Shown here one piece after another: positions 4,299 to 37,575 of a stretch of DNA of 64,000 bases. The stretch comes from a plasmid, in the sequence record NZ_CP090789.1. One strand, written 5' to 3'. The stretch's first letter is position 1, and each line of letters opens with the position of its first letter. The position numbers and the translations under genes are program-made. The notes beneath the pieces were generated by a model that was not told the DNA's origin, did no database searches, and saw nothing but the letters and a program-made list of their open reading frames with translations.

Positions 4299-7121
4299 TT
4301 AATCACGCACGCCTCGGCCACCCCGTCGATTTTCATTGGACTGCTCGCGCTCGATTTCACCCACGCCGGCGGCCTTCCGCTGCCGCTGCAGATATTCGGC
4401 GCGGGCTGCTGCGCGTTCCGCCGCGCTCATGCCTGCGAACGGCTTCTTGTTGATTCGCACACGATCTGTCTCGGCGCGGTCGGCGCTCGAATGCCGCATA
4501 TTTTCGACAATCGCTTCCGCTCGCGCTTGCCCGCTCAGCGCGACCAATGCCTTCCAGGCACGATCGTCCCGGCTTGCGAGGTAAGCGAGACGACCGCGGA
4601 TTGCCGGATCGATATGCTCGAGCGCGGACCCTGACCGCTTAAGTTGAGCGCGCTCCTTCGCCTGCAGCGGCCGGTTATCCGCACGTGCGCGCTGCCGCTT
4701 GTCGAGCGCGTCGACGTATTGGTCCACGGCGTTATCGAGCGTCACTGGTTGTCGGCGAACCGGTGACGATGCGGCGCTCGCGGTCCGTCGAAGAGCGAGG
4801 GTATGTCGGTAGCCCCGCTCGGCGCCGAGTTCGGTTTCGGGTCGAACACCGTAATACGCGCTGAACGACTTTTCATCAACACGCGACAACGCGCGACTCA
4901 GCGCAGCGGCATCGGCAAACTCGTCCTTCCCGGACGCAAGTGTCAGCGATGTCTTGTGCCGCGTCATTGCAACGTAGGCGAGCTCCGCATGCAGACTCTT
5001 GGTCGCCAGGATGTACGCACGATCGACAGTCATGCCCTGGCTCTTGTGGATCGTCAGCGCGTAGCCGTAGTCGATTTCGCCATACGTCGCAGAGTCGATC
5101 GAAATGCTGCGACCGTTATCGAGGCGCACGTGTAGGATCGACCCGGGCTTCGAGCTTTGCTCTCGAGCCTCGATCCGCTCGATGGTTCCAAGCGAGCCGT
5201 TCTTTACGTCGATATCGTAGTCGTTCCGGAGGAACATGATCCGCTCGCCGGCCGCCAGCATCATGGTACGCGAGTGCTGGCTCTCAGCCTGGTCACTACC
5301 ATCGACGCGCTCGACCAGCTGAACCGCGTGGTCGCTGCCAAGTTCCCCGCGCGCACGAAGGGCCGAGCGGATCGCGGTGTTGAGCCCGTCACGTTGAGCA
5401 TTTGTGTGCGTCAACAAGATCTGCGAATCGCCACGGTATGCGTCCCGGTCTGCCATGAATTGTGCGACGAGCATGTCGCGCGCAGCAGCGAGCGATTCGA
5501 ACAATTGGACCGATCCACGTTCCGCATAGGCCGACACCGCGGCCGGAATTTCATGCCTAGACAATGCCTCGGATGCCTGACGTTGCCAGTCTTCCTTCTG
5601 GCGCTTGATCTCGGTTAGGCTCGACAGCGCATTCACGGCTTCGGCCTTCTTGCTGACGGCGCGGAACGCGTCGCCGGCGTCAACCGCATGCAGCTGATAT
5701 GCGTCGCCGACCATTCTAATGCGGGCATTGGCCCTTTCGATGTGACCGAGCAGCTTCTCCATTTGCCGAGAACCGACCATCCCGGCCTCATCGACGAAGA
5801 CCACCGTTCGCTCGTCAAGTATTAAGCTCCCGCGATCCAGAGAGCCGAGCAGGCTGTGCAGCGTCCGACTTTGAATGCCGGCATCGCGCTCCATGTCGTC
5901 AGCGGTTTTCCCTTGGAGAGCCGCGCCGAGGACGCGGAAGCCATCGGATTCCAGCGCTTCTCGTGCGGCCTTGAGGACGTAGCTCTTCCCCGTCCCGGCC
6001 GCGCCGTTCACGACGACAAACTGCCGATCTGATACGAGAAGAGAAAACGCCGCATCTTGGCCGGCATTGAAGTTTCGCGAGATCCGCAGAACGTCGTGAC
6101 GAGCCATGGTCCCGGATCGCGTCGGGACGTTGGAGAGACGCTCGGCGCGTGCAACGAGCCGATCCTCAAGTTCCTGAAGCTCGCCGGAAGTAAACCAGTC
6201 GCCTTCTTTGCCGGGGACGCTCAGCGCGATCAACTCTTTCGAGTTCATCATGCGAGCATAAACTTGGCGGAATTGCTCTTCTCCGTCAGTGTTGCGGAAA
6301 ACGAATTGCTCGACGTCGCGACGCGAGAATATCGACTTGGTCGCCGTTAACGCGTGCACACCAATCGACGGATTGATCAGAAGACGTTTGCCGTTGCGTT
6401 CGGCCCGCGCGCGATTCTCGGCCAGCACGTTTTCCATTACGCCCCGTTCACCGGCGTAGCGGGCGACACCAACCTTGAGCGAAGGCTCAAGTTCGATACC
6501 GAGCGTCTTGTAACTCCGATGGTCGATGCGAGCCTCGATGCCGTGTCGTGCCATGAAGTGATTTGCGGTCACCGCCCATTCCTCGCGGACGTCGACCACG
6601 AACTGTCTGCTGCTCAGATAGCGGTCTTTGCCAGCCCCGCCTTTCTCAGGATGCTCGCGATTCCAGCGACGAAAGAACTGCTCGGGATCTCGTGGAATCC
6701 CGTCGTTCACGCGCTCCGTAAACATGATGTGGGCGTGAGGCTGTTCCAGACCATCGCTCGCAGCGGGGTTGTGGATTGCCCAAGAATAGGCGTGGCGTTC
6801 ACCGAGCGTGTTCTGGACAAACTCCCGAACCAATTCGACGCGCTGCTCATCGTTCAATTCGCGCGGGATGGAAACCTCGATCTCGCGGTACGGACGACCG
6901 TTGACTCGCTCGTACTGATCGGCAGCTTGCCAGAAAGCGCTCGGATCATGCTCGGCCCATGCCGGCATGTTTCCGCTCTCAGACATCTTCAGATCGCCGC
7001 GTTCCTCGTATCGCCCACCACGCGAGATATAGGCGTAGTGATCCTCACGTGCGATGTACTTGGCATGCTCGCCTGCCTTGGCAGCTTTGCCTGGTTTGAC
7101 GCTGAGGTGGTAGGTCGACAC
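4299..7121 (-). CDS. traA: Conjugative relaxase/helicase, TraA-like: MobA/MobL-family relaxase N-terminus fused to a RecD/TraA-type helicase
   Basis: 940 aa with a GTG start. The N-terminal MSTYHLSVKPGK...KYIAREDHYA signature and the HAHIMF histidine triad are typical of MobA/MobL relaxases. A Walker A motif (GAAGTGKSY) and helicase motifs sit in the central/C-terminal part. Architecture matches Ti/rhizobial TraA. Confidence 0.85.
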   Translation of the reverse strand: MSTYHLSVKPGKAAKAGEHAKYIAREDHYAYISRGGRYEERGDLKMSESGNMPAWAEHDPSAFWQAADQYERVNGRPYREIEVSIPRELNDEQRVELVREFVQNTLGERHAYSWAIHNPAASDGLEQPHAHIMFTERVNDGIPRDPEQFFRRWNREHPEKGGAGKDRYLSSRQFVVDVREEWAVTANHFMARHGIEARIDHRSYKTLGIELEPSLKVGVARYAGERGVMENVLAENRARAERNGKRLLINPSIGVHALTATKSIFSRRDVEQFVFRNTDGEEQFRQVYARMMNSKELIALSVPGKEGDWFTSGELQELEDRLVARAERLSNVPTRSGTMARHDVLRISRNFNAGQDAAFSLLVSDRQFVVVNGAAGTGKSYVLKAAREALESDGFRVLGAALQGKTADDMERDAGIQSRTLHSLLGSLDRGSLILDERTVVFVDEAGMVGSRQMEKLLGHIERANARIRMVGDAYQLHAVDAGDAFRAVSKKAEAVNALSSLTEIKRQKEDWQRQASEALSRHEIPAAVSAYAERGSVQLFESLAAARDMLVAQFMADRDAYRGDSQILLTHTNAQRDGLNTAIRSALRARGELGSDHAVQLVERVDGSDQAESQHSRTMMLAAGERIMFLRNDYDIDVKNGSLGTIERIEAREQSSKPGSILHVRLDNGRSISIDSATYGEIDYGYALTIHKSQGMTVDRAYILATKSLHAELAYVAMTRHKTSLTLASGKDEFADAAALSRALSRVDEKSFSAYYGVRPETELGAERGYRHTLALRRTASAASSPVRRQPVTLDNAVDQYVDALDKRQRARADNRPLQAKERAQLKRSGSALEHIDPAIRGRLAYLASRDDRAWKALVALSGQARAEAIVENMRHSSADRAETDRVRINKKPFAGMSAAERAAARAEYLQRQRKAAGVGEIEREQSNENRRGGRGVRD

Positions 7122-7151: not shown

Positions 7152-7190
7152 GTTTCTATGCTAGCATAGAAACGCGTAAGCGCGCGTTGT
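7152..7190 (+). promoter_or_regulatory. Putative oriT: perfect 22-bp palindrome GTTTCTATGCTAGCATAGAAAC followed by an RSF1010-like nick core GCGTAAGCGCGCG
   Basis: Seen directly, 30 bp upstream of the relaxase start and between divergent relaxase and accessory genes. In RSF1010/R1162 the oriT is an inverted repeat ending in AGAAACCGG followed by TAAGTGCGCC|CT. Here the inverted repeat ends AGAAAC-GCG and is followed by TAAGCGCGCG. Confidence 0.6.
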
Positions 7191-7436
7191 ACTTCCCTGT
7201 AGACACGGGTTTTTGCGAGCTCCCTAGAGACCTGCGGTTTTGGGGTTTCAGATCGTGAAATGGGGTTGGATCGCTGGCGCGACGTCGGTATCGTCGGGAG
7301 GTGTGTGGTCTCGACGGTGCTGCATCAGGTCCAGTCCTCCATACGGGAGGGCTGGACTGCGGGCAGTAGCACATCGGACGATTTAGGTGCGGCTGCTGCG
7401 GAGTCGAATTCGTTTTTTTTGGGTGAGGTAGAACCT

Positions 7437-7871
7437 ATGTCACGTCCCGAATGGTTGGCGGTTCGGTTGCAGTTCATCAAGGGTCTGAATTCTCCGACCG
7501 AAGCACAGCGGCTGCTCGTTGAATTGGCTGAGCGGCCCGAACTCGACAAGTCTGACGCGCGGGTGCTCGACCAGTTGATGCGGATGGAACGTATCAACAT
7601 GAAGGCCGATGAGGCGAAGGCGGAGACGGAAAAGCTTCTGCGCGCGCGCCGTCTTGAACAAGATAGGGCGCGCGCGAAGGCACACGCGGAGTTGGGTGCT
7701 GTGGTGGCGGGAGTCGGATTTCCGCTGGAGCGGGACTTGTTGGCGGGCGTGCTGCTCGAAGCGCTCGAACGCCTCAAGGCCGACCCGGCGTTGCGCACGG
7801 GTTGGAGTTCGCGCGGCGTGGCACAGGCGAAGCCAAGCGATGCGGAGGAGAAAAAGGCCGACGCGGCCTAA
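7437..7871 (+). CDS. Small relaxosome-accessory-like protein (TraC/TraD/MobC-position gene), divergent from traA across oriT
   Basis: 144-aa ORF from the internal ATG with a GAGGT RBS. The listed ORF starts earlier at 7260, but the upstream part has no RBS and overlaps the oriT region. The protein is acidic/coiled-coil. Assignment is by position only. Confidence 0.45.
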   Translation: MSRPEWLAVRLQFIKGLNSPTEAQRLLVELAERPELDKSDARVLDQLMRMERINMKADEAKAETEKLLRARRLEQDRARAKAHAELGAVVAGVGFPLERDLLAGVLLEALERLKADPALRTGWSSRGVAQAKPSDAEEKKADAA

Positions 7872-7928: not shown

Positions 7929-9920
7929 TTACTGACCGTCCGGTGCGTCTGCTGCTTCCGCCTCACGCGTCGGGTGTTCGATCGGGAAAGTCGATTCCCG
8001 ATTCGTCAGCACATCTGGAAGCCATCCCGATTCAACCAGTTGCATTTCGGCCGCTGCGGCGGCATCTCCCTTCTTCATCGAACCCAGCGGCATTGCGGCC
8101 GTCGCCGAAACCGCCTGTGCCATTACATCGACGATGCGCTGTTTCGACACGTGGTTGAGGTAACTCGTCTGCGTCGGCTTCCAGTAGCGCACCATGTCCA
8201 CGTCGAGCACGTCGGCCAGCGTGTTGACGGCGTGCGGCTTGTTCTCCCGCGCGATTCCGTTGACCATCGCCGCAACGCAGAAGGCAAACAGGCCCGACAG
8301 AGTGTCGTCTGTCGCTTCCAGCAGCCACGGCAGCAAGTGGCGCAGTTCGTTCGGCATCGTTGCCGCCCATTTCGTGCGCTCGGCGTCGATGATCCGCCAT
8401 GCCGTACTGTCGGTCATGTCATCCGCAACGCTGGAGAGTTGGTCCAGACTCGGCCGGAAAGTCGCTTCGAGCGCGTGGTATTCGCGCCAATGATCGTCAA
8501 ACTGTTCCTCGAACACGTCAGGAATCATCGTGTACAAGAGGTAGGCCATCGCCACGTCCGGGCGCTTCGCAAGCTCCGCCTGCACAGCAGCAGTGCGATG
8601 AGCAGTCAGCCGAACGCAGAGAGTTTCGCTGTGGACGGGGCGGGCTTTCGTCGTCCGCTCGGCCTGCTCGCCGTGCTGACCACCGGAAACAGCGGCGGCG
8701 ACTTCCTGCGGTTTGACAACGCCGCGCCTGACTTCAAGTTCGCCATTTGCGTCGATCCAGACTTGCGCGCCAGCACCGGCTTTTTGCTCGTCGGTCCATA
8801 CCTCACAACGTTCTTCGAACGCGTCCAGCGCTGCCTGAGCGTCGCGCACGGCTTGATGGAGCACGTCGCCGTCGGCGTCCGAATCTTCCGTATCGTAGTG
8901 CGCGTCGAGCGCAGCATCCGCACTCTGGCACGCCTGTTCCAGCTTGCGATGTTCCGCTTTCTCCTTCTTCGTCAGTTCGCGGCGCTCCGGGTCCAACTGG
9001 CGCACACGCATCGCCATGAGCGCCTCTCGTCGTACTGCCGCGTCCACCCACGCCCAACCCTCGGCGCGCACTTCCTCGGCGGCGGCCGTCAGCTTTTCCA
9101 CGGCAAGGCGGTTTAGCAATTCGAGGTCGGCCACAAATCCGCCGTTTCCGTCGCCGCTGAACAGGTCGCGTCGCACATATCCGCCCGCGTCCTCGTAGGC
9201 GTCGAGGCCGATGAATCGCGCGAGGGAATTCGTGGCCGCATTCACTTCGGCTTTGGTGATGACCGCCCGAATCTCGCGGGGGCTGCGCTGCCACTCCTGA
9301 ATCGATTCGAACCAAATCCGCTCTTGTTGTTCGGTGTCGTCGGACAGTGCGAGCGCGCACGCCTGCTCGTAATCCATCCCGTCATCACGAAACACTTCTA
9401 GCAGCTTCGGCGAAATGTTCGCCAGCTTCAATGCGCGACGGACAACCGTTTCTGACACGGAAAACCGAGCGGCAATGTCGGGAATTGATCGGCCCTCCGC
9501 AATGAGTTCGCGGAACGCGACGCACTGGTCGGCGATGTGCATCCCTTCGCGCTGGACGTTCTCCGCAAGCGAGATCGCCAGCGCTTCGCCGGCGGAGACG
9601 ATCAGCACGGGCACGAGATCCGTATCCGACCAGCGGCCTCGGGATTTCAGGAGGTCCAGTCCGCCCAAGCGGCCTTGGCCGGCGCAGATTCCGAACGGAC
9701 GAAGGCCGTTCCTTTGTCCATCTTCATCGATCGGATGCCCTACGAGGTTTTGCAGCAAGCCGTTAGCGTCGATGTCGTCAGCAAGCGCGGGGATGTTCTT
9801 GGCGGGCTTCTTCCGCACGTTGCGGGGTGACACGCACAGCTGGCCAAATGGGATGTAGTTGATTTTCCCGAACGTGTACGGGACGGGGTTGGCGAGGATC
9901 GTATCTGCTACTTGGTTCAC
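7929..9920 (-). CDS. Large ParB/Srx-domain (ParB-like nuclease domain) protein of plasmid leading regions
   Basis: About 664 aa from GTG 9920 with a GGAGA RBS. The N-terminal ParB-like box (GLLQNLVGHPIDEDG...RRAL..A) is recognisable, followed by a long acidic C-terminal region. The ORF track extends the start to 9962 through the inverted-repeat arm. Confidence 0.7.
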   Translation of the reverse strand: MNQVADTILANPVPYTFGKINYIPFGQLCVSPRNVRKKPAKNIPALADDIDANGLLQNLVGHPIDEDGQRNGLRPFGICAGQGRLGGLDLLKSRGRWSDTDLVPVLIVSAGEALAISLAENVQREGMHIADQCVAFRELIAEGRSIPDIAARFSVSETVVRRALKLANISPKLLEVFRDDGMDYEQACALALSDDTEQQERIWFESIQEWQRSPREIRAVITKAEVNAATNSLARFIGLDAYEDAGGYVRRDLFSGDGNGGFVADLELLNRLAVEKLTAAAEEVRAEGWAWVDAAVRREALMAMRVRQLDPERRELTKKEKAEHRKLEQACQSADAALDAHYDTEDSDADGDVLHQAVRDAQAALDAFEERCEVWTDEQKAGAGAQVWIDANGELEVRRGVVKPQEVAAAVSGGQHGEQAERTTKARPVHSETLCVRLTAHRTAAVQAELAKRPDVAMAYLLYTMIPDVFEEQFDDHWREYHALEATFRPSLDQLSSVADDMTDSTAWRIIDAERTKWAATMPNELRHLLPWLLEATDDTLSGLFAFCVAAMVNGIARENKPHAVNTLADVLDVDMVRYWKPTQTSYLNHVSKQRIVDVMAQAVSATAAMPLGSMKKGDAAAAAEMQLVESGWLPDVLTNRESTFPIEHPTREAEAADAPDGQ

Positions 9921-10127
9921 GGTTTTTCTCCGGTTATCGCCTACAGCACACCGCCGAGGCATAAAATAATTATAGGACGAAACGTCCTTATAGTGTCGGA
10001 TTTAAATAAAACCCACAAACCTTTATCGGGTATTCATATTATTTTGCGTATAGGGACGAAACGTCCTATAATTACAACCATGCCCTAGCGATTCCGCCGT
10101 GGGCGATAACCGGAGAAAAACCGTGAA
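9916..10127. promoter_or_regulatory. Divergent control region bounded by perfect 26-bp inverted repeats that contain the RBS and GTG start of both flanking genes; it holds two copies of a 13-bp core GGACGAAACGTCC inside TATAGGACG-AAA-CGTCCTATA palindromes
   Basis: Seen directly. Arm 9916-9941 is the exact reverse complement of arm 10102-10127 (GGCGATAACCGGAGAAAAACCGTGAA). Palindromic sites lie at 9971-9992 and 10049-10072. Both divergent ORFs therefore begin with the same peptide (G)DNRRKTVNQV. Confidence 0.7.
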
Positions 10128-12857: not shown

Positions 12858-14831
12858 TTACGCCGTCAGGATCATCAGCGCGGTATTGACGGAGCTTGCA
12901 GACTCGGCGAACGTATCGGCCGGCAGGTCCACCCACTCTCCACCGTGGGCCGCCACGAGACGCTGAAGCGCTTCACGCCGGCGCGGACCATTCGCGCAGA
13001 CCGCCACGAGTCGGCCACCTGGCTTGAGCATCTCGAGCGCATGCCGAATATGCCGAATGTCATCGCCGTGCGAGAACGGTGGGTTCATGACGATCCGGTC
13101 GAATGGTGTCGGCGCCACGTACGTGAGGAAATCCGTGTTGATCACGTCGGCGCCGGCCTCGCTGACGCGCAGGTGATCGCACAGGCGGGCGCTGATCTCG
13201 ACGGCGGTCCGCACCGCAGCGCCACCCGTCGCCTCGCGGATCGCGCGCAGGATCCGGCCGGTGCCGGCACTCGGTTCGAGAACGGTATGTCCCGGCTCGA
13301 TCGCGGCCAGCTCGACCATGCGCGCAGCGAGTGATACGGGCGTGGGGAACAGCTGCGAGGCGCTCACGACCTGCACCCCATGCTTCAGCTGCTCACGCAT
13401 TGCATTGAACTGCGCGCCGTCGTCGCCGGCGGCCGCGTGCTCAGTCGTCGAGCCGTTCGTCGGAACGGTGGTCACATCGCTCGGGCGCTCGACGGATGCG
13501 GCTGCCGTGAGATCCGGCGCGGCGAGCTCATCCGTGTTTCCAGCCGGCGAGATTGCCGGCGGGTTGACGCGTTTAACGTCGGTCAGGTAGACCGCCACCA
13601 ATGCACCGCGGTGGACCACCGAACGCACGCGGTGCCGGCCGACCGCGCTAGCGACGTCCGCTGCGCCCTTGATGTCCGGCCGATACCTGCCCGGTCGAAC
13701 GGCGCCGGCGCCGAGCTCGCGCGAACCCTTGTAGTCGCGATGCGTGGCGTCCCATTCGGCCTTGGTCATTGCGTGAAAGCCGGTACCGGGGTAGTTGCAA
13801 AGGGGCGGCAGCTTGCTTGCTGCCTTCACCGTGGCCGCCACTTCGGCGGACGGAGCGCGGTAGTCCTTGATTTCTTCGATGCCCCGTACCGGCACGAATC
13901 GCGCGTTGGTGGTCACGCTGCAGATTGCGCCGGCGGAGCGATTCACGCGCGTCACCACAAGCCACTCGCCGCGTACGAGTACCTGGCCCCCGGGCACGAT
14001 GTCGAAACCATCGGCCTTGATGCCGCCTTGTTCCGCGAGCATCGCGCGCTCGTAGTTCAGTCGGCAATCGTAATGCGCAATCCAGCGTTCCCAATGTGCG
14101 CGATTACGTCCTTCACGCTCGAGGTACTGGTCACAGGTCGCGCGGAAGTTATCGGGGTCCGCGTTGATTGCGCTCCAAAGGCCGTGCAGACTCGACGCCG
14201 AAGCCACCATGAGGGCACGCTCTGCGGTCAGCGTCGGCGATCGCAGCGCATCAGCTGCAGCCTTCAGGAGATCGAGGCTACGCGTGCACTTGCGGCGGTC
14301 GGCCTCGATGCGCTTAATCCGACGATGGCGGACGTCCGCACGCTCCTTGTATTTCGCGTGTTGCAGCGCCCCCGCTGCGCGGCGCTCCCAATATTCGTGG
14401 GTGTCCCACATCGAGACCGCTTTGCGCATGGCGTTGTCGATGCGCTCCGCATCGCGTCGCGCGCGGGCTTCGCTGTGGTGACCGACCAGGATCGGCTGAC
14501 CGAGTGGGATATGCTCGGTGATCGATGTGACGACGGCATGCGCGGCCTTCGCGTCCGCCGCGCGCCGTTCGCTATAACCATCGAATCGGTCGGCACGCTC
14601 TTCCGCGCGTTCGACGAGCGACGTGTCCTCGTCGTCGATTTCGCCGCACAGCTCGATGAGAAGATCTTCGCGGGCCGGCGTCCAGCTCGGCGCGACGAAC
14701 AGATCCTGTTTCGGCGCGAACCGGAACCCGGCATCGTGAACACGTCGATACAGGCCTTCCTCGAGGCGCGCGGTGCTGTACAGACGCAGCTTGTTGTCGT
14801 CGGGGGAATAGGTTGCCGTCAGGTGTTGCAT
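12858..14831 (-). CDS. Fusion protein: conserved plasmid-associated N-terminal domain (DUF3560-like) plus a C-terminal class I SAM-dependent methyltransferase with an NPPF motif
   Basis: 657 aa from ATG 14831, with a GGAG RBS 5 nt upstream (the ORF track extends to 14987 without an RBS). The C-terminus has motif I VLEPSAGTGRIL and motif IV NPPF, which are amino-methyltransferase signatures. The N-terminal ~400 aa match my memory of DUF3560 proteins found next to methylases on plasmids. Confidence 0.7.
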   Translation of the reverse strand: MQHLTATYSPDDNKLRLYSTARLEEGLYRRVHDAGFRFAPKQDLFVAPSWTPAREDLLIELCGEIDDEDTSLVERAEERADRFDGYSERRAADAKAAHAVVTSITEHIPLGQPILVGHHSEARARRDAERIDNAMRKAVSMWDTHEYWERRAAGALQHAKYKERADVRHRRIKRIEADRRKCTRSLDLLKAAADALRSPTLTAERALMVASASSLHGLWSAINADPDNFRATCDQYLEREGRNRAHWERWIAHYDCRLNYERAMLAEQGGIKADGFDIVPGGQVLVRGEWLVVTRVNRSAGAICSVTTNARFVPVRGIEEIKDYRAPSAEVAATVKAASKLPPLCNYPGTGFHAMTKAEWDATHRDYKGSRELGAGAVRPGRYRPDIKGAADVASAVGRHRVRSVVHRGALVAVYLTDVKRVNPPAISPAGNTDELAAPDLTAAASVERPSDVTTVPTNGSTTEHAAAGDDGAQFNAMREQLKHGVQVVSASQLFPTPVSLAARMVELAAIEPGHTVLEPSAGTGRILRAIREATGGAAVRTAVEISARLCDHLRVSEAGADVINTDFLTYVAPTPFDRIVMNPPFSHGDDIRHIRHALEMLKPGGRLVAVCANGPRRREALQRLVAAHGGEWVDLPADTFAESASSVNTALMILTA

Positions 14832-14865
14832 GTGTGCTCCAGGTTGGTTTTTGCTGACCGGGACC

Positions 14866-15335
14866 CAAGATTCTGAGTCCCCGCGTATTGGGTTCTGTCG
14901 AGTCGGCGTGCTGCGCTTCGCAGCTGCCGCCGGTCCCCTTAGTTCGTCGTCCCGCGAACGGACGAGCGCCGGCCGGCGCCGGGTCAAGGGATCACGCGCG
15001 GGGTGGGGCGGGAGGGAGCGCAGCGCACGACACGGCCTCGCGCGCCTTGACGCGGCAAAGGCCGGCGCTACGGTCGCGGAACTAGGACGACGAGCTCAGG
15101 GGACGGGAAGGTCGGTAGCGGCCGCATGCCGATGAGGCAGAACGCCGCGCGCGGCGAGCGCGCTATCTGAGGCGCGAAGCGGCTCAGGTGGACATGGGGT
15201 GGCCAGCGCCGGGGCGTGCTGCGGGACGCAGCTCGGCCCCTAGAGCGTGGTGGGGTATCCGGGCCGCGGAGAAAGCGGCTCGCGTGGCAAAGCGATCACG
15301 TCGGTTTGGTGCGCGAGCCGGCGCGGCTCGGCTCG
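14866..15335. repeat. Copy A of a ~470-bp structured direct repeat (about 95% identical to 18140-18612), immediately upstream of the minus-strand methyltransferase-fusion gene
   Basis: Seen directly by alignment of the two regions. It contains an 18-bp long-range imperfect inverted repeat (14935-14952 with 15085-15102), the 14-bp palindrome GCGCCGGCCGGCGC, and other GC hairpins. The ORF-track entries inside it (14830..15135, 15188..15475 and twins) are duplicated shadow ORFs. Confidence 0.8.
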
Positions 15336-15702
15336 ATCCGGTTGCTCCGGGCCATGAGAAAAGGGGCTTTCGCCCCTTCCCTTACCGCAGCACCACGCAC
15401 ATGCGCCGTGGTGTCCACCAGACCAGAAGCGCGTATTCATTGCTGAAAAACTCCGCGTTGTCGTGGTCGATGTAGATCACTGGATCGATCATGGTCATCT
15501 CCTTTAAATGTGGGACCGCGAACATGCGGTCCCATCTTTATTTATGCGTGCACGCCGAATCGGCGCAAAAAATCCGGGCCGCCGACAACTACCCGAACTC
15601 GACCGGCCGCGCCGGTGCTGCGCAAGCCATGCCTCGGCAGTTCTTGCCGCCGCTAAGGCGACCGGTCTGTCTGCCCACCGGGGCACGTGTCCTCTGCCTC
15701 CA

Positions 15703-17532
15703 TCACGAGTCGAAGGCAAACTCGAAGGTGGTTTGCGCCCCAGCCGTCGTAGCCTTGTGCGCCCAGGCATGCCGCGCGTTGTCCGGCAGGTCACCAAAGC
15801 GCACCCCTTGCTGGACCAGCTGCTCGGCGTTGTGCCCGAGATTTAGGCCGAGCCGGTCCTTGAAGTCGGTGCGTCGCGCCACCTCATCGTGCTTGAGCTG
15901 CTGCTTGTGGGAAAGCGTCAGCGCGCCGTAGCTCAGATACCACCGATAGCCGGCCGTGATTCCGCCGGGATGAAAACCGCGATCGTGCATGTCGGCCAGT
16001 CGATCGGCCTCGAATTCCAGGATCATCTCGGCCGACTCGACATCGACGTCGAATCGCGTGCCCGTCCGAACCTCCCATGTGCTCTTGCCGTCACCGAGAT
16101 CCATGACTGTCGGCGCGCAGGGCGAGCGCTCGGTCAATGCTTCGAACAGCGGGTCACGAAAGCCCGTCCACTGATCCGCTGTTTCGTCCCATTCAGTGCC
16201 GACCTTCAGGAAAAGTGGTTCCGGCAACGGTGCCGGCGCGACCGGCGTGATTTCCGGAACGGAATAGCTCATGCCACGCTCGCAGATGTCGCGGTAGTCT
16301 GCCCAGATCGCGAAGGGCGCCGCGAGTCCCTGCAGGGACTGCATCGCGTCGACGGCGATCATCATCGGTAACGGTAACGTCTGGAATTTCGGGCGCGTCC
16401 CGGCGCGCCGCGCGCGGATCCTCTCCTCTCGATCGATTGTCAGCATGTACCGGACGAGCTCGCGGACGGTCGCGGCGCCGAACGTATCGGGCTCGAGGCA
16501 GATGTACCCTTCTCGGATCGTGCGACCGACCCAGTTGCGGCGCGACCAGTCGTAGCGGATTGCGCGGATGAATCGATTCAGCTGCTGCAGACCGCGCGCA
16601 TAGGCGTAACGATCTCCGTCGAATCGGATCATCTCGGCAAGCGACCGATCATCGGCTTGCTGGCAGGTCCAGCAGCCGGTGCGTGCATCGCAATGTCCGC
16701 GGCGCACGCGCTTGCCGGCGGACGCCTCCTCGAAGGTGAGATCCGACACGATCGCGCAGCTGCTGTTACCGGCATGCGCGTAGATCCGCTTCGTCTCATC
16801 GAAATCCGTGTAGCTGTCGCGCAGACCGGACGATACTTCGCCAATGAACTCCCAGACGTCTTCGGTCGACCAGCCCGCAATCGGGCAGAGCGTGAGCTCC
16901 CCGTCACTGTTGCGGACCGGCGTATCCGCGCGATCGCCGCGCGCGGTCATCTTCGCTTTGCGCCGCTCGCTCTCTTCGAACCGTGTGCCGAGCAATACGA
17001 CCGGCTCGGCATAACCGGCCTTCCGTGCCTCGCGGTACAGCTGGTTGCGGCCGACGCGGCTCGGCTCGATTTTCAACGAAACCGAGCAGTCGGAGTTCGT
17101 GCCAGCGTAGCTTGGCAGGGCGCGGCCGGTCAGCACAGCCAGCTGCCAAGACGTCGCAAGCGACGGCGCCACAACCTGCACGCGGACGTCGAAGCCGTGC
17201 TCGCGACCGAACGCCCCCATCTTCTCGAGCTCACGCAGTGCATGCTCGACCATTTCAGGCGACTCCACCAGGGTGTCAGCCGTGATCACGCAGACGAGCG
17301 GCCGGCCGCCGGCGGCCGCGTGCAGGCGGGCGGCATCAAGCGCGAGACTGGTCACGACTCCGCTATCCTTGCCCGCGCTGAATTGGCAAATCACCATTCG
17401 GTTGTCGGTGAAAAGCGCCCCCAGCGCTTCGATCGCGCGCGCAACGCGCTGGTCGAGAGAGGGGCGCATTTCGGCCTGCAGGAACATTTCGACCGTTTCC
17501 ATCGAATTCAGCCGAAATACCAGACGTTGCAC
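15703..17532 (-). CDS. PAPS-reductase/PP-loop ATP-pyrophosphatase family protein (DndC/IbrA-like) with a large C-terminal extension; start uncertain (GTG 17532 or ATG 17502)
   Basis: SGGKDS-like PP-loop QFSAGKDSGVV near the N-terminus, a Cys cluster CDARTGCWTCQ, and roughly 350 aa of unassigned C-terminal sequence. Proteins of this type accompany ParB-like genes on mobile elements (IbrAB) and act in DNA sulfur modification (DndC). Confidence 0.65.
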   Translation of the reverse strand: MQRLVFRLNSMETVEMFLQAEMRPSLDQRVARAIEALGALFTDNRMVICQFSAGKDSGVVTSLALDAARLHAAAGGRPLVCVITADTLVESPEMVEHALRELEKMGAFGREHGFDVRVQVVAPSLATSWQLAVLTGRALPSYAGTNSDCSVSLKIEPSRVGRNQLYREARKAGYAEPVVLLGTRFEESERRKAKMTARGDRADTPVRNSDGELTLCPIAGWSTEDVWEFIGEVSSGLRDSYTDFDETKRIYAHAGNSSCAIVSDLTFEEASAGKRVRRGHCDARTGCWTCQQADDRSLAEMIRFDGDRYAYARGLQQLNRFIRAIRYDWSRRNWVGRTIREGYICLEPDTFGAATVRELVRYMLTIDREERIRARRAGTRPKFQTLPLPMMIAVDAMQSLQGLAAPFAIWADYRDICERGMSYSVPEITPVAPAPLPEPLFLKVGTEWDETADQWTGFRDPLFEALTERSPCAPTVMDLGDGKSTWEVRTGTRFDVDVESAEMILEFEADRLADMHDRGFHPGGITAGYRWYLSYGALTLSHKQQLKHDEVARRTDFKDRLGLNLGHNAEQLVQQGVRFGDLPDNARHAWAHKATTAGAQTTFEFAFDS

Positions 17533-18098
17533 TGATGGACGGCATCACGCGTAAAGCTCTCGCGGAGTCCTGGTTCGAGCTCGCTGTTCGCAAGAATCCG
17601 TTCGAACAAGTTGAGGATACGGACGCATGCGTCGCCGACGTGCGAATTGGAATCGCACTCCAAGATCTCGGTGTCGAGCTCGGTCCACAGCGCCGCGTTG
17701 ATCTTCTGCCGCACAGTGCCTTTCGTCGTCGGCTCGTCTCGTTCCTCTTCTGGTGGGACCGGGAAACCCGCAGCCGCGAGCTCGCGACGCGCCTGGTCGT
17801 CCCATCGAGTCGGCGCTTCGGCGTCGCATCGGAATGCATACCGGATCGCGGCCTCGCATTCCGGTGTTCCTTCCTCGGTCTCAACCTTCACGGCAACCTC
17901 AAAGTAGTTGCCGAAGCCATGCGTGCAGGCCCGGACAATGAATCGTGCTCCCTGCGGTGGCTCACCCAGCGCCCGCGTAATCACTTTGATGAAGGCGCGA
18001 CACTCCGCGCGGCTGCGATCTTGATAGTTCTCGTTTCCCAGCTGAACGCACGGCTCGTTGGCCGGCGAAGGCCCACAATCAATAATCAGTTTGTACAT
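17508..18098 (-). CDS. Cys-rich hypothetical protein (196 aa), translationally linked to the downstream PAPS-reductase-like gene
   Basis: Good AGGAAG RBS before ATG 18098. Its stop overlaps or abuts the PAPS-reductase-like ORF. At least 9 cysteines. No recognised domain. Confidence 0.5.
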   Translation of the reverse strand: MYKLIIDCGPSPANEPCVQLGNENYQDRSRAECRAFIKVITRALGEPPQGARFIVRACTHGFGNYFEVAVKVETEEGTPECEAAIRYAFRCDAEAPTRWDDQARRELAAAGFPVPPEEERDEPTTKGTVRQKINAALWTELDTEILECDSNSHVGDACVRILNLFERILANSELEPGLRESFTRDAVHQCNVWYFG

Positions 18099-18139
18099 GC
18101 TCTTCCTCTCTGGCGTACCGCGCGACGCGGTGTTAGCTG

Positions 18140-18612
18140 CCCGGGCTCCAAGATTCGGAGTCCCGACGTATTGGGTTCTGTTGAGTCGGCGTGCTGCGCT
18201 TCGCAGCTGCCGCCGGTCCCCTTAGTTCGTCGTCCCGCGAACGGACCAGCGCCGGCCGGCGCCGGGTCAAGGGAACACGCGCGGGGTGGGGCGGGAGGGA
18301 GCGCAGCGCACGACACGGCCCCGCGCGCCTTGACGCGGCAAAGGCCGGCGCTACGGTCGCGGAACTAGGACGACGAGCTCAGGGGACGAGAAGGTCGGTA
18401 GCGGCCGCATGCCGATGAGGCAGAACGCCGCGCGCGGCGAGCGCGCTATCTGAGGCGCGGAGCGGCTCAGGTGGACATGGGGTGGCCAGCGCCGGGGCGG
18501 GCTGCGGAACGCAGCGCGGCCCCTAGAGCGTGGTGGGACATCCGGGCCGCGGAGAAAGCGGCTCGCGTGGCAAATCGATTACGTCGGTTTGGTGCGCGAG
18601 CCGTCGCGGTCC
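18140..18612. repeat. Copy B of the ~470-bp structured direct repeat, immediately upstream of the minus-strand Cys-rich/PAPS-reductase operon
   Basis: Seen directly. It carries the same internal long-range inverted repeat and GC palindromes as copy A. Confidence 0.8.
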
Positions 18613-18705
18613 GGCTGGATCCAGCTGCGAAAAGAAACTCGCCCCGGTTTCAGTGCCTAGCTATTTGAGTAAGCGAACCTGATCTGATAGCTTCTTACTC
18701 GAGAA

Positions 18706-27418: not shown

Positions 27419-28513
27419 TTAAAGACGTTGATCGTCAAGCGTTGATTCGGACGTGAGGCGCGGCATCTTCAACAACTTCGCCTTGTAGCTAAACACGTCG
27501 CTCTCATCGATGTCGAATCGGCGCAGCCAATCATCGCTTTCGGCAGTCGTATCAAAGTATGGTGCGGCGGCCCCCATCAATCCGCGCTGCAAGCGCCACA
27601 CAGTCTTCGCTCGAATAGCCTTCAACGCATTGTTGAGGACCACGTAGTTCGCAGGTGCGACGGGCGGCCCCTTCCCTGACTCATCGGCTGCGCCACCGGG
27701 CTCGGGTTCGGGGCCGGCCTGAATCACGACCCCACCGTTCATGTCGTACAGCGCGAACCAGTCCGGCGGCAGTTCGCTTCGTAGCGCTGCGATCCCGCCC
27801 GCCTGCTCCAACAGCGACTTGTCCAGGCACGTGAGCCAAGAAACCGTTTTCAGTTTCGATCGCAGGTGCGTCGCGTTGAGCAGCGGATTGCCGACGTCGA
27901 GCGCCAGGTAGCGCCGGGCCAACCAGTATTCCGTCGGTGTGTTGGCCTCAGCTTCCGTCAGGCTCAGATTCACCGCGAATCCGGCATAGCCGTTGTAGGC
28001 GTTCAGCCGTTTCGCGAAGTCGACGAACAGCTGCTGGAACGCGCGAGGATGGGCGACCAGAAATGGCACAGGCACCGAGAAGGTCAGTGCGCTGGCGCCC
28101 CCTTCGGCCATCGCTTCCTCGTACTCCAGGATCCCGAACACGCGGAACTCCCACAGCCCTGCATCCTCAGCCTTTTCGCCGGAGGACAGGTAGGCCGTAA
28201 CGCCCGCGTCGCCGCGCGCGCGGAACGCCTTCGGGTCCACCTGCCCATCCTTCAGCTGCACGGGCATCCGGCCGTCCTGCGTGAGCCAGCGAAGGCGCGG
28301 TCCCGCGTAGGCCGCATACGCCGCGAAGCAGTTTGCAATCTCGCCCTGCACGGCTTCCTGATACGCGTTCGGAAAGAACAGCGCCGCGCGCACGACCATC
28401 GCTGCGCCGACGTAGTCGTGACGCTGCTTCGGCAGAAGCATGCCCCCTTTCAATAGGGCGTCAGTTTGGGCATTCTTCGCCCACTCGATCAGTGCTTGTT
28501 CGTCCATGGTCAT
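27419..28513 (-). CDS. Putative immunity protein for the upstream nuclease effector
   Basis: 364 aa from ATG 28513. This start overlaps the effector stop by 1 nt (the ORF track extends it to 28630). Its position directly after a PAAR-effector pair is the canonical immunity-gene slot. No family recognised. Confidence 0.5.
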   Translation of the reverse strand: MTMDEQALIEWAKNAQTDALLKGGMLLPKQRHDYVGAAMVVRAALFFPNAYQEAVQGEIANCFAAYAAYAGPRLRWLTQDGRMPVQLKDGQVDPKAFRARGDAGVTAYLSSGEKAEDAGLWEFRVFGILEYEEAMAEGGASALTFSVPVPFLVAHPRAFQQLFVDFAKRLNAYNGYAGFAVNLSLTEAEANTPTEYWLARRYLALDVGNPLLNATHLRSKLKTVSWLTCLDKSLLEQAGGIAALRSELPPDWFALYDMNGGVVIQAGPEPEPGGAADESGKGPPVAPANYVVLNNALKAIRAKTVWRLQRGLMGAAAPYFDTTAESDDWLRRFDIDESDVFSYKAKLLKMPRLTSESTLDDQRL

Positions 28514-29277
28514 CAGAATAGCGGAATCGGGCTCGGCGATGGGGCAGGCGCAGCTCCGTCGGGCGGCCGTGGGCCGAAGACGCTGCGTGAACGTTTCGTC
28601 GCGCCCTCGAGCTCGTCGAACGGGCTCCACGGGGCCGGCTTCGACGCGCCGTCTGTGGCATCTCTCGGCGCGGGCCCGAGTACCGGAAATTCGCTGGTCT
28701 TCTCCTGCTTTTTCCCGTCGTCGTCAGGGCACCCGCAATCCTCCGGCGTCAAAAGGACGGCAGCTGCATTGGGGCCGGCGATAAGTTCGTCTTGCCTTTG
28801 ATGCCGCGTTGAATACGAATCGCCCTTGAACTTCATTTCGACGACGGCGTCCAGATTGTCCTGGGTCGGCTCCTTCGCCGGATCCTTGACGATCACCACA
28901 TCGGGGATCCGCACGTTGCCGACGCCGCGCTCGTACTTTCCGACCCAGTTGTCCTCGATCCATTGAGGGAGCCAACCGTGCGTCTTGTTCGGCGTGCGCG
29001 GGCTCATGATCGGTGTGGGTGGACGAACCGTCATGAGGTACTTCACCTCGGGTTTGTAGATGCTGGTCTTAAAGTCCGGGTCGTCCTGCTTGAGCTTTGA
29101 GGCGACGCAGATCTGTCGAAGATCTTTGCCGTCCACCGACTGCGGCGGATTGTTCTTGCACGAGCACATCAGGCTGCACAGCTTCGCCTGATCTTTGGGC
29201 CGCAGCTTCGAAGTCAGGTAGACCCGACTGGTTTCGCCGTCGCCGGGCGCCGTTCCTCCGATCGACCACTTGCTCAC
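28513..29277 (-). CDS. PD-(D/E)xK-type nuclease-like toxin/effector following PAAR
   Basis: GTG start 29277 overlaps the PAAR stop as GTGA. The core IPDVVIVKD...DAVVEMKF fits a PD-(D/E)xK D...E.K nuclease motif. The C-terminus is Pro/Ala-rich. Confidence 0.5.
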   Translation of the reverse strand: MSKWSIGGTAPGDGETSRVYLTSKLRPKDQAKLCSLMCSCKNNPPQSVDGKDLRQICVASKLKQDDPDFKTSIYKPEVKYLMTVRPPTPIMSPRTPNKTHGWLPQWIEDNWVGKYERGVGNVRIPDVVIVKDPAKEPTQDNLDAVVEMKFKGDSYSTRHQRQDELIAGPNAAAVLLTPEDCGCPDDDGKKQEKTSEFPVLGPAPRDATDGASKPAPWSPFDELEGATKRSRSVFGPRPPDGAAPAPSPSPIPLF

Positions 29278-34206: not shown

Positions 34207-36039
34207 CTACGACTGCATGAGGCGTGCATGGTATTTCGCGATTTCTGCGCGGCGGCGCTTTTCCTCTGCGGTCACGTAGACCGACGTCGTCTGCAGTGAC
34301 GCGTGGCCGAGCAACTGCTGGACGACGTCGAGCGGCACATCGGTGGCCACCGACTGCGTGCCGAACGTATGGCGGAACGCGTGCGGCGACAAGCCCGCCA
34401 GCCGCCGGCGTTCCGGCTCGGTCAGATCCGGCACCGTCTCGAGCAGCTGCTCGACCGCCCATTGCACCAACCCGCGCGCGCCCCGCACTGAGTACCCGAC
34501 CGTCGCCTTTATCGCTGTGCCGTCGCCGTCCTCGCGCGCGAACTTCTCGTACGCCCGCGGCGTGCGCGGAATCACCAGTGGCGCGACCAGGGCCAAGGCC
34601 GGCTCCGCCGCGTCGTCCGGCGCGTCGAAATCCAGTCCACGATCCTGCCAGTGCGCCCGGAGCGCGTCGACGCACGAGCGGCTGATCGGCACGACCCGCT
34701 CCTTTTTCCGCTTGCCGATCACGCGCAACTCCCAGGTTGCCGGAATCTCGCCGTCGGCCGGATGCCACTCCAGCGCATCACGGGCGGCACTCACCGCCTC
34801 GGCGATGCGCAGGCCCGCGTCCCCCATCAGCAGCAGCAGCGCGCGCGCTGCACGCCAGCGGGACGCGTTCGGTCCCGATCCTTCGCTCCTGTCGGCCAGC
34901 ACGGCACGCGCCCGCGTCCACAAGTCGAACGGTAAGGCGCGACCGACCTGCAGGCGCTTCGCGCGCTGGATCGGCTTCGGATCGACCACGGCCGACCACG
35001 GATTACCCGCGAGGTAGCGCACCTGCACCAGCCATTCGAACGCCGCGCGGATTGCCCGGATCGCGTACCGCTGGCTGTCGAGTGACAGGCCAGCCGGTGT
35101 GAACGGGCGCCAGCGACCTGAGGCCCGCGACACGGCGGGACCGGTGAATGCCGCCGACGGCGCGGCGAGAAACGCCTTGTACGCCTCGCAATCGTCGACC
35201 AGCAGCGCCGACAACGCGACGCCGCGCTCGACGACGGCCCACAGCACCAACCGCTCAAGCTCCCGCCGGTACGCGCGCTGCGTCGCTTCCTGGCCAGCGT
35301 AGCGGCTCAGGTAGGCGCGCACTGCCGCGAGATCGTGCGACGCCTTGATATAGGGAAACAGCGGTGAGCGGTTGGCACCGCTTGCCCCCGACAACGGGTG
35401 CGGCACCGCCATCCGCTCCAGCGGCACCAACTGGCCGCGCACCGGCTCGATCGCCTGGCCGACGTCGGCCAGCGGTTCGGCCGTGTCGACATCGACGTCG
35501 ACCGACAGACCGATCGTCACGGCGTGTCGGCGCAACCACGCGACCACCACGCGCGCCCGGCCAGCGCCCACGCGCGGCACCGAGCGCCACCAGCTGCCGC
35601 CGCGTCGATTGCAGAGTGCGACGAGCTCGCCGATCGTCACAACGCCCTCGCCGGCCAGGCGCTGCGCTACCAACGGGCGAAGCCAGCGGCTCACCGGGTG
35701 ATCGGCTGCCGGCGCCGCAGTCGCCCACGCGCCGGCCACCTGCTCGATCATCTGCAGGGACACGGGCGTCAGGCGCGGCTCGCCGTACTTCGTGATCGCC
35801 GCCTGCAGATGCGCGACGAGCACCGACGAGCCCTGCTGAAGCGCGTGTGCGATCAGGTCGTCACGCATCGTGCGCAGCAGCCGTTCGACCTCGAGCGGTT
35901 CGGTGGTGTCGGTGTCGAAGTAGAGCCGCGCGATCGTCGCGATCGGCAAGCCTTTCACGCGTGCGCGTAGCGCCGTGAATTCGGTGCGGCTATAGGTGCG
36001 CAGCGGGGGCAGCGTCAGCTGCTGAGGTCGGTTTGCCAT
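34207..36039 (-). CDS. Tyrosine recombinase/integrase (610 aa) with an extended N-terminal region
   Basis: The C-terminal catalytic block ...HAFRHTFGT...LLGHASLQTTSVYV carries the R-H-R-Y family residues. The long N-terminus is typical of island/plasmid integrases. Confidence 0.85.
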   Translation of the reverse strand: MANRPQQLTLPPLRTYSRTEFTALRARVKGLPIATIARLYFDTDTTEPLEVERLLRTMRDDLIAHALQQGSSVLVAHLQAAITKYGEPRLTPVSLQMIEQVAGAWATAAPAADHPVSRWLRPLVAQRLAGEGVVTIGELVALCNRRGGSWWRSVPRVGAGRARVVVAWLRRHAVTIGLSVDVDVDTAEPLADVGQAIEPVRGQLVPLERMAVPHPLSGASGANRSPLFPYIKASHDLAAVRAYLSRYAGQEATQRAYRRELERLVLWAVVERGVALSALLVDDCEAYKAFLAAPSAAFTGPAVSRASGRWRPFTPAGLSLDSQRYAIRAIRAAFEWLVQVRYLAGNPWSAVVDPKPIQRAKRLQVGRALPFDLWTRARAVLADRSEGSGPNASRWRAARALLLLMGDAGLRIAEAVSAARDALEWHPADGEIPATWELRVIGKRKKERVVPISRSCVDALRAHWQDRGLDFDAPDDAAEPALALVAPLVIPRTPRAYEKFAREDGDGTAIKATVGYSVRGARGLVQWAVEQLLETVPDLTEPERRRLAGLSPHAFRHTFGTQSVATDVPLDVVQQLLGHASLQTTSVYVTAEEKRRRAEIAKYHARLMQS

Positions 36040-36071: not shown

Positions 36072-36365
36072 TCATTGGAGCACTCCTTTTTCGATCAACC
36101 AGTTCCATTGCGCATGCAGGAGATCTCGAAGTTCGTCGTCATGCAGCTCGATGTATGTGCGAACGATGAACGACTGAAGGTGTTGAAGCGGCGTCAAGCC
36201 ATTAGCATCGCCTACCGCCGTCTCGCCATTTCGAACGGCACTGAGGACCATGTCCACACCATCGCGAAACGAGTCGATGGTGACCCGATCGTGCGCGTCC
36301 AGCGGCATCAACCGGCTGCAGCTGACGATGTACTCGCGAACGTGTCGGATCTCTGGAAAGGTCAT
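36072..36365 (-). CDS. Small hypothetical protein (97 aa), last gene of the Abi-like operon
   Basis: Overlaps the stop of the upstream gene by 4 nt. Confidence 0.35.
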   Translation of the reverse strand: MTFPEIRHVREYIVSCSRLMPLDAHDRVTIDSFRDGVDMVLSAVRNGETAVGDANGLTPLQHLQSFIVRTYIELHDDELRDLLHAQWNWLIEKGVLQ

Positions 36366-37300: not shown

Positions 37301-37551
37301 CAGGCGGTCACCGTCCGTTTCGCATAGGCCAGCGCCTCGAATCGGGCGCGGTCGCCACGCACGCGGGTCGGATCGACTGCGTCGATCGTCGTGACGAGCG
37401 CATCCCACAGCGCCAGTGCGCCGCGTGCTTCGCCCATTGCAAGTCCGAGGCCGTAGGTTCCGATCTCGCACGCAGCCGCGCGTTGCGTCGCGTCGCGGAT
37501 CTCGCGCTCGGCGCGGTTCGTGAGGGTTTCGTAAATCAAGGTCATCTTCAA
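37300..37551 (-). CDS. Small hypothetical protein (83 aa, TTG start), stop overlapping the Abi-like start
   Basis: Translationally coupled arrangement. No domain recognised. Confidence 0.3.
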   Translation of the reverse strand: MKMTLIYETLTNRAEREIRDATQRAAACEIGTYGLGLAMGEARGALALWDALVTTIDAVDPTRVRGDRARFEALAYAKRTVTA

Positions 37552-37575
37552 GGGTTCTTGTGAATGGGAATGCGG

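Follow-up and report, generated by a model that had tools for sequence, protein, structure and literature searches.

Sulfur-inserting PAPS reductases and the locus under study

To our knowledge, every established DNA phosphorothioation system brings together an enzyme with a phosphoadenosine phosphosulfate (PAPS) reductase domain, a P-loop nucleoside triphosphatase (NTPase) and a DNA-targeting protein. The present study concerns a relative of one such enzyme, DndC, that is encoded on a Burkholderia plasmid (sequence record NZ_CP090789.1), of which a stretch of 64,000 nucleotides (nt), here called the window, was analysed; the closest records are those of the B. contaminans plasmid pB1701 (92% identity) and the B. 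pseudomultivorans plasmid pINT23 (87%). The gene lies on the minus strand at 15703..17502 and encodes a predicted solitary DndC-like PP-loop/Fe-S enzyme of 599 amino acids (aa). Directly upstream of it, at 17508..18098 on the same strand, the first gene of the operon encodes an acidic 196-aa protein, here called p196. An initial annotation of this DNA had taken the two genes for a module. Judged from its sequence, the enzyme represents a branch of the DndC lineage that is solitary, plasmid-borne and equipped with a C-terminal domain of its own.

DndC of E. coli B7A has the conserved cysteines C146, C262, C273, C280 and C283, four of which ligate a [4Fe-4S] cluster, and its binding to DndD maps to residues 433-482 and the C-terminal helix (PMC12193691). 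SspD and BrxP also use a PP-loop domain for sulfur insertion into DNA, which BrxP fuses to an accessory domain, and they need SspB/SspC or BrxC (PMC12914056). Solitary PAPS reductases with a proposed role in counter-defence are encoded by phages, in Aca-regulated operons and in the Vibrio phage of Piel et al. (2022); as cited in PMC13551039, a phage PAPS reductase promotes evasion of Dnd (Piel et al., 2022). A 2026 paper in Nucleic Acids Research, which cites this work, puts forward phage DndC/SspD-like PAPS reductases, along with LPD29 proteins, as candidates for anti-defence functions. The gene family studied here is visible in databases, and a counter-defence role for PAPS reductases of mobile elements has thus been suggested before; no functional study of the plasmid enzyme family was found in a literature search whose coverage left out most subscription journals.

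The DndC-like core of the enzyme

The Pfam family PAPS_reduct matches the enzyme with 35.1 bits against a cut-off of 22.5, over residues 48-231 of a 609-aa open reading frame (ORF) that represents a longer call of the same gene, and the Pfam scan of the enzyme returned nothing else at E <= 0.1. The initial annotation had noted a resemblance to DndC, and this resemblance is borne out by all three profile methods used. The NCBIfam model for DndC, TIGR03183, matches over profile positions 11-290 of 447 (E = 1.7e-27), with 96.4 bits, where the cut-off is 290.4 and a genuine DndC reaches 639 bits. The PADLOC model for DndC matches with E = 4e-28, and a PADLOC model labelled type II methyltransferase also aligns to the N-terminal module of the enzyme (E = 1e-12). 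When a family profile built from 126 diverse sequences, IncC and IncHI2 members included, was compared with the DndC profile by hhalign, residues 20-388 of the window's enzyme aligned with positions 1-355 of 469 in DndC at a probability of 100 (E = 3.8e-51), which places the DndC-homologous core at 16339..17445 on the minus strand.

The residues that matter for catalysis in DndC are found in this core. The PP-loop SAGKDS occupies residues 42-47 (17362-17379, minus), and its pattern S42-x-G44-K45-D46-S47 is 96-98% conserved across the 126 family members. Cys139 (17086-17088, minus) and the cysteine motif C249...C271-x5-C277-x2-C280 (16663-16758, minus) align with five DndC cysteines and are 93-100% conserved in the same alignment, and the resulting pattern, C139/C249/C271/C277/C280, corresponds to that of the E. 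coli B7A enzyme. A D-[KR]-S-L motif after the cluster cysteines is common to the enzyme and DndC. An AlphaFold2 model of the enzyme has a mean predicted local distance difference test score (pLDDT) of 84.8 and a predicted template modelling score of 0.85, and the cysteine loop is its sole poor segment. On these comparisons the catalytic core is DndC-derived and has kept the PP-loop and the five-cysteine motif predicted to serve [4Fe-4S] binding and sulfur relay. The conservation of these residues in the 126 members, together with the purifying selection described below, argues for a catalytically active enzyme.

Other relatives of the PP-loop fold are far more distant. RefSeq labels the enzyme a 'phosphoadenosine phosphosulfate reductase family protein', and the database name 'PAPS reductase' is misleading, because the models for CysH, the assimilatory PAPS/APS (adenosine phosphosulfate) reductase, score about 14 bits (PRK02090, 14.8 bits against a cut-off of 154; TIGR02055, 13.3 against 235). 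Matches to the tRNA enzymes TilS and TtuA reached E values of about 0.7-0.8 only, and the [4Fe-4S] tRNA thiolases TtuA, NcsA/Ncs6 and TtcA share fold-level similarity with the enzyme only, as they have other accessory domains and a housekeeping context. Neither the two proteins nor the family profile had a useful match among chain sequences in the PDB, and a Foldseek search against viral structures matched the N-terminal domain alone, with TM-scores normalised to the query of at most 0.25.

The enzyme and DndC are thus alike over about 370 residues, with an SGGKDS-type PP-loop in DndC and SAGKDS in the enzyme, and with a C-x5/6-C-x2-C motif. DndC, however, is encoded in chromosomal defence islands, whereas the enzyme is plasmid-borne, has no dndA, dndB, dndD or dndE gene nearby and lacks the DndD-docking C-terminus. 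Since its score lies below the equivalog cut-off, its C-terminal region differs and a dndDE operon is absent, it falls outside the DndC equivalog.

A family-specific C-terminal domain

The last part of the enzyme, residues 389-599 (15706..16338, minus), is an acidic domain of about 210 aa that is restricted to the enzyme family. Its isoelectric point (pI) is 4.9 and its net charge -13, the family median pI is 5.2, and few of its residues are invariant in the 126-member alignment. Among 1.84 billion cluster representatives, the domain was found in 241 (E <= 1e-3), almost all of which have the same architecture of N-terminal enzyme and C-terminal domain. No match to it was obtained in Pfam, NCBIfam, PADLOC or the PDB, and no relative was detected outside the enzyme family. 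A disguised DndC C-terminus was considered and rejected, as the comparison of residues 389-599 with the C-terminus of DndC gave a probability of 0.2. The extra domains of longer family members proved uninformative, with one DUF4262 only.

The initial annotation had described the C-terminal 350 aa or so as not assignable; this holds for the last 210 or so, whereas the stretch up to residue 388 is assigned by its homology to DndC. By these comparisons, the part of DndC that docks DndD has been lost in the enzyme family, and an unrelated acidic domain stands in its place. DUF4007, which is fused in BrxP, was not detected in the enzyme, whose C-terminal domain is without any Pfam match. IbrA, to which the initial annotation had also likened the enzyme, similarly combines a PAPS-reductase N-terminus with an extra C-terminal region and is associated with mobile elements, and a ParB-like gene is present in the same leading region as the enzyme gene. 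Membership in the IbrA type is nevertheless not borne out: DUF3440, the IbrA domain, had no match at E <= 10 in an 84%-identical ortholog of the enzyme, and in place of an adjacent ParB partner of the IbrB type there is a ParB-like gene 5.7 kb away, whose linkage to the enzyme is confined to the Burkholderia clade.

Distribution and the search for partners

Partners of the known kinds are missing from the neighbourhood of the enzyme, as the initial annotation had observed. Profile scans and a survey of the large ORFs of the window revealed no dnd or ssp partner and no DndD-, SspC- or BrxC-like gene, and neither the window nor about 55 related loci contained dndD/E, sspB/C or brxC-like partners; the ORF-size filters could have missed a small dndE but not a dndD. 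Likewise, none of the partners of SspD and BrxP (SspB, SspC, BrxC) occurs at the enzyme loci, and the PADLOC matches of the enzyme itself consist of DndC models and the one methyltransferase model.

The family is abundant on plasmids. A tblastn search of the enzyme against 72,556 plasmids of PLSDB found matches in 2,761, of which 1,992 have matches that span 80% or more of the query and 2,145 (about 78% of all matching plasmids) are predicted to be conjugative; the leading host genera are Escherichia (594), Salmonella (458) and Klebsiella (334). The matches include proteins of IncC (817 aa; homolog WP_001187970) and IncHI2 (794 aa; homolog WP_000469466) plasmids, of a P. aeruginosa megaplasmid and of pQBR57 (locus L070), and the alignment of the IncC protein with the family profile runs through the C-terminal domain as well (probability 100, E = 2.6e-54, 545 columns). 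The enzyme family occurs on plasmids and other mobile elements, and on plasmids rather than chromosomes.

In IncC, IncHI2, the P. aeruginosa megaplasmid and pQBR57, the family member stands by itself within a long run of small genes that all face one way. Genes for DNA methyltransferases or antirestriction proteins are found nearby in five of six independent lineages, namely Burkholderia (in two arrangements), IncC, IncHI2 and the P. aeruginosa megaplasmid, and in the last three such a gene lies within a few kb; in pQBR57, none is annotated in the 13.5 kb around the family gene. Hall et al. (2015) reported that the most divergent gene between the near-identical plasmids pQBR103 and pQBR44 has a PAPS-reductase domain (67% aa identity). 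This gene may belong to the same family, since the related pQBR57 has a member. The divergence of the gene is a hint of diversifying selection in Pseudomonas, in contrast to the Burkholderia enzyme, which is under purifying selection.

A separate observation was made on a Streptomyces sp. plasmid (CP108397, locus L068), where a gene at 4944-6353 encodes the full-scoring DndC mentioned above (639 bits on TIGR03183). No dndD or dndE is annotated within 5 kb of it, and it is embedded in a one-directional array of hypothetical genes; it is possibly a further case of a solitary DndC on a plasmid, from a different lineage.

Gene calls and selection

The two minus-strand ORFs of the initial annotation, the PP-loop sequence VICQFSAGKDSGVV and the nine cysteines of the 196-aa protein are all present in the window. 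The ORF containing VICQFSAGKDSGVV was listed by the program as 15703..17532 (minus), with a GTG start and a length of 609 aa; RefSeq homologs and the aligned N-termini of 40 homologs support a start at the ATG of 17502 and hence a length of 599 aa. Between the stop codon of p196 and this start there is a gap of 5 nt (TGA-ATTCG-ATG), and the two genes therefore do not overlap: of the earlier statement that the p196 stop overlaps or abuts the enzyme gene, close adjacency stands and overlap does not.

Because GC-rich DNA commonly yields long spurious ORFs, and several antisense ORFs of 290-500 aa do appear in the ORF list, selection was tested on both ORFs. The ratio of non-synonymous to synonymous substitution rates (dN/dS) was 0.05-0.09 for the enzyme gene against the orthologs of three related plasmids, and 0.13-0.15 for the p196 gene against those of two. 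By this measure both ORFs are genuine genes, and purifying selection acts on them. A 36-aa ORF, MIDPVIYIDHDNAEFFSNEYALLVWWTPRRMCVVLR (15382..15492, minus), lies between the enzyme gene and the next copy of a repeat described below; it has a strong Shine-Dalgarno sequence and is conserved with 92-94% protein identity in three related loci (L001, L004 and L073). It is followed by a GC hairpin and a T-run at 15356-15376, and is possibly the last gene of the p196/enzyme unit.

The small protein p196 and its link to the enzyme

The protein p196 is acidic (pI 4.8) and consists of an N-terminal alpha/beta domain (residues 1-117; 17748-18098, minus) and a C-terminal helical domain (residues 125-196; 17511-17726, minus), which appear in an AlphaFold2 model (pLDDT 83) as an alpha/beta domain and a helical bundle. 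No informative structural neighbour of this model was found. Its sole family match is TY-Chap3, with a sub-threshold 18.7 bits against a cut-off of 27, and PHROGs, PADLOC and NCBIfam gave no match. Among 5.8 billion sequences p196 has 13 homologs: four full-length proteins, all from Burkholderia, eight stand-alone proteins of 117 aa that represent its N-terminal domain, and one fusion to DUF6166. The Cys cluster that had been ascribed to the small protein dissolves in this comparison: across 14 homologs only C33 and C91 of the nine cysteines are invariant, and no conserved metal-binding cluster is present.

Each half of p196 exists as a separate gene elsewhere, so that p196 is a fusion of two small modules. 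The 117-aa relatives occur in plasmids of the B. cepacia complex (L005-L009, at 6001-6354, in L008 at 4400-4753), in leading-region-like arrays without the enzyme. The C-terminal 72 residues have their counterpart in a free-standing 80-aa ORF on a B. contaminans plasmid (L020, 13999-14241), 4.2 kb downstream of the enzyme gene. Divergent homology between p196 and LPD29 was considered and rejected (BLASTP E = 17).

All five full-length p196 genes lie 5 nt upstream of an enzyme gene. These five loci, however, form one narrow Burkholderia clade with 78-92% protein identity, and shared descent therefore explains the linkage. In plasmids of B. cenocepacia, B. ubonensis and others whose enzyme gene is 83-85% identical at the DNA level, p196 is absent and an unrelated LPD29 gene lies directly upstream. 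The DNA similarity to these LPD29-type plasmids (L002, L003, L016-L018 and L022) ends exactly at the enzyme start codon (17502/17503), and this break at the gene boundary indicates a cassette-like exchange of the upstream gene. In L071 the order is DUF932-LPD29-p196-enzyme, while LPD29 and the enzyme are adjacent in related plasmids; the p196 gene has therefore either entered an array that was already there or been lost from it.

The wider family gives the same picture. Neither full-length nor N-terminal-domain homologs of p196 were found at about 50 other family loci, with the C-terminal module only in L020, and other genes lie upstream of the Methylibium and Cupriavidus homologs of the enzyme. 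When all plausible ORFs within 6 kb of the gene were clustered over the approximately 55 loci, no neighbour family recurred in more than 14, and every recurrent cluster reflected lineage-specific synteny. Because the neighbours vary in this way, no gene qualifies as a conserved partner of the enzyme, and the 'module' amounts to two genes that are neighbours at this locus. Thus the gene-neighbourhood comparison across plasmids that the initial annotation had proposed speaks against a two-gene module: the pair is missing from near relatives, which have LPD29 upstream instead, and from other lineages, the cysteines are not conserved, and 117-aa relatives exist without the enzyme. We infer that p196 is an independent, swappable cargo gene of the leading region, which is merely co-transcribed with the enzyme and is not a subunit of it.

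The hairpin repeat and the plasmid setting

A non-coding repeat of 500 nt at 18129..18628 ends about 30 nt before the start codon of p196. A second copy at 14846..15345, 94.6% identical, bounds the p196/enzyme unit downstream and stops about 30 nt short of the start codon of a gene for a DUF3560-methyltransferase fusion. The initial annotation was right that the operon has its own copy of a structured upstream repeat, and the length of 300 nt given there is corrected to 500 nt. The repeat contains a long imperfect hairpin at about 18216-18388 (z = -5.8 and -6.0 against shuffled sequences), and the DNA fold on the plus strand, the strand inferred to be transferred, has z = -6.0. A sigma-70 scan of the repeat on the gene strand found no canonical -35/-10 elements, and an Rfam search over 12-20 kb gave one chance sub-threshold microRNA match only. 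Related copies occur in 243 plasmids of Burkholderia, Pseudomonas and enterobacteria, 217 of which are conjugative; a single plasmid can have as many as 14 copies, and the repeat is unannotated in all 25 records listed. The copy at 18129-18628 is a plausible candidate for a single-strand (Frpo/ssi-like) promoter or initiation element of leading regions.

The placement of the operon in a leading region comes from a candidate origin of transfer (oriT). Between the gene for a 940-aa MobA/MobL-AAA_30 relaxase (4299-7121, minus) and a divergent TraD-like gene (7260-7871, plus), a site at 7152..7190 on the plus strand contains the perfect 22-bp palindrome GTTTCTATGCTAGCATAGAAAC followed by GCGTAAGCGCGC, which we take to resemble the oriT inverted repeat and nick region of RSF1010/R1162. 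The site is likely an RSF1010-type oriT, with a putative nick at about 7177-7190 placed by likeness to an RSF1010-type consensus. If this likeness holds, the plus strand would be nicked and transferred 5' to 3' toward higher coordinates, so that the relaxase gene would enter last and the DNA from 7.2 kb upward would be the leading region. The p196/enzyme operon would then lie about 8.5-11 kb inside the leading region, and its minus-strand genes would be templated by the transferred plus strand. Samuel et al. (2024) reported the same arrangement for anti-defence genes, methyltransferases and single-stranded DNA-binding proteins of leading regions, which they place on the transferred strand behind Frpo promoters.

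The leading side carries the ParB-like gene (7929-9962; 5.7 kb from the enzyme gene, with other genes between), an ArdB/KlcA-type antirestriction gene, a DUF3717 gene, an N6/N4 methyltransferase gene, the DUF3560-methyltransferase fusion (12858-14831, minus; PADLOC mad2-like, E = 1e-21), which has its own copy of the hairpin repeat upstream, and then the p196/enzyme operon. The methyltransferase domain of this fusion is C-terminal, and in pINT23 the ortholog is shorter (447 aa). In related plasmids, one orphan methyltransferase gene lies on each side of the enzyme unit. Given the antirestriction and methyltransferase genes around the enzyme and the oriT-like site, the role at plasmid entry that the initial annotation had suggested is reasonable.

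Just past the leading array, at 19.3-27 kb, the window contains an H-NS-like gene, a gene for an SOS-response-associated peptidase (SRAP) and imuA-imuB-dnaE2, with about 91% identity to many Burkholderia plasmids. Between this mutagenesis cassette and a Rep3 gene at 43.6 kb lie three genes, at 27419-28630, 34207-36039 and 36362-37579. The first encodes an immunity protein of the TsiV type (for type VI VRR-NUC toxins), the second a DUF3701 integrase and the third a protein with an Abi_C domain.

Proposed function and alternatives

We tentatively favour the reading that the enzyme is a partner-independent, early-expressed DNA-thiolating enzyme that would protect incoming plasmid DNA in parallel with the orphan methyltransferases, a proposal that draws on its sequence and on analogy and that we consider quite possible though short of probable. 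DNA is the suggested substrate by analogy with DndC, the closest characterised relative, which acts on DNA. The alignment of the PADLOC methyltransferase model to the N-terminal module, and the proposal of 2026 that phage DndC/SspD-like PAPS reductases modify DNA in anti-defence, point the same way. In the proposed mechanism, the incoming single strand would fold the hairpin and the operon would be expressed early. A host cysteine desulfurase (IscS) would supply sulfur to the Fe-S site, and the enzyme would adenylate a DNA position with ATP and exchange the activated oxygen for sulfur, yielding a phosphorothioate or a thio-base. No ATPase of the DndD/SspC type would be used, and the plasmid DNA would be marked or hardened against host restriction, as the neighbouring orphan methyltransferases are thought to protect it. 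These methyltransferases share with the enzyme its niche, its strand and its presumed timing, although their fold and chemistry differ. A more specific form, in which one DndC-derived polypeptide, with its own C-terminal domain replacing DndD/DndE, thiolates incoming and possibly single-stranded plasmid DNA within minutes of entry, is possible yet rather doubtful.

Several points weigh against a DNA-thiolating role at plasmid entry. All established phosphorothioate systems need a P-loop NTPase, and isolates that have a PAPS-reductase gene and no P-loop NTPase had no phosphorothioate dinucleotides (PMC12914056). The acidic C-terminal domain looks unlike a DNA-binding specificity module, and the dN/dS values show no trace of an arms race within Burkholderia. 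As for the timing, the hairpin repeat is without canonical -35/-10 elements, oriT and nick are assigned tentatively, by likeness to a consensus, and the placement in a leading region applies to this window only.

An alternative is an effector directed at the host, in which the enzyme or its acidic C-terminal domain would interfere with Dnd, Ssp, BREX type 4 or another host defence. It could compete for persulfide derived from IscS, bind a component of the defence or modify some molecule of the host. The report of Dnd evasion through a phage PAPS reductase, as cited in PMC13551039 (Piel et al., 2022), offers a precedent. Like the plasmid enzymes, the phage proteins are solitary and mobile, and LPD29 genes occur in their loci as they do at the enzyme loci, but they measure about 230-360 aa and are without the middle and C-terminal domains of the enzyme family. 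An acidic C-terminal domain with few invariant residues would suit a binding domain, and the antirestriction genes of the leading region would suit the context. A pure decoy, however, is hard to reconcile with a PP-loop and five cysteines that are 93-100% conserved, and titration of DndD is unlikely because the DndD-docking part of DndC is missing. Blocking host phosphorothioation would, moreover, expose the chromosome to the host's own DndFGH, and no evidence ties the plasmid hosts to either Dnd or Ssp. We regard such an effector as unlikely.

The acidic C-terminus and the want of a recognisable DNA-binding domain would also fit a PP-loop thiolase that acts on RNA or a small molecule (tRNA, rRNA, a nucleotide or a cofactor) and tunes host physiology or plasmid expression. 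This is improbable in view of E values of 1e-27 to 1e-51 for DndC as against about 0.7-0.8 for TilS and TtuA, of the DNA methyltransferase and antirestriction genes that recur nearby, and of the occurrence of the family on plasmids and not on chromosomes. An obligate two-protein system, with p196 as a metal or sulfur carrier, specificity factor or chaperone, is very improbable. The 5-nt spacing within one operon, the position of five out of five full-length p196 genes directly upstream of the enzyme gene and the weak, sub-threshold match to the chaperone family TY-Chap3 speak for it, but those five loci form one narrow clade, the enzyme does without p196 in close relatives and in every other lineage, the gene order in L071 points to insertion or deletion of p196, just two of the nine cysteines are invariant, and the halves of p196 are found apart. 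As to an ordinary assimilatory PAPS reductase (CysH), in line with the database name, the scores far under the cut-offs, the length of 599 aa with a DndC-type cysteine motif, the lack of sulfate-assimilation genes nearby and the setting in a plasmid leading region make it next to impossible.

Implications for plasmid biology

The family represents an abundant branch of the DndC lineage on mobile elements, which occurs alone, has discarded the partner-docking region and is annotated as a metabolic 'PAPS reductase family protein'. Even if the enzyme does not modify DNA, it would still be a conserved Fe-S/PP-loop enzyme of plasmid backbones. If the more specific form, in which a single polypeptide thiolates incoming plasmid DNA, is true, a self-contained 'orphan thiolase' counter-defence would be present on some 2,000 or more plasmids and would provide a new, partner-independent route to DNA sulfur modification. 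Modification of DNA by the enzyme would constitute a new form of plasmid self-protection and might help to set the host range of major resistance plasmids such as IncC and IncHI2.

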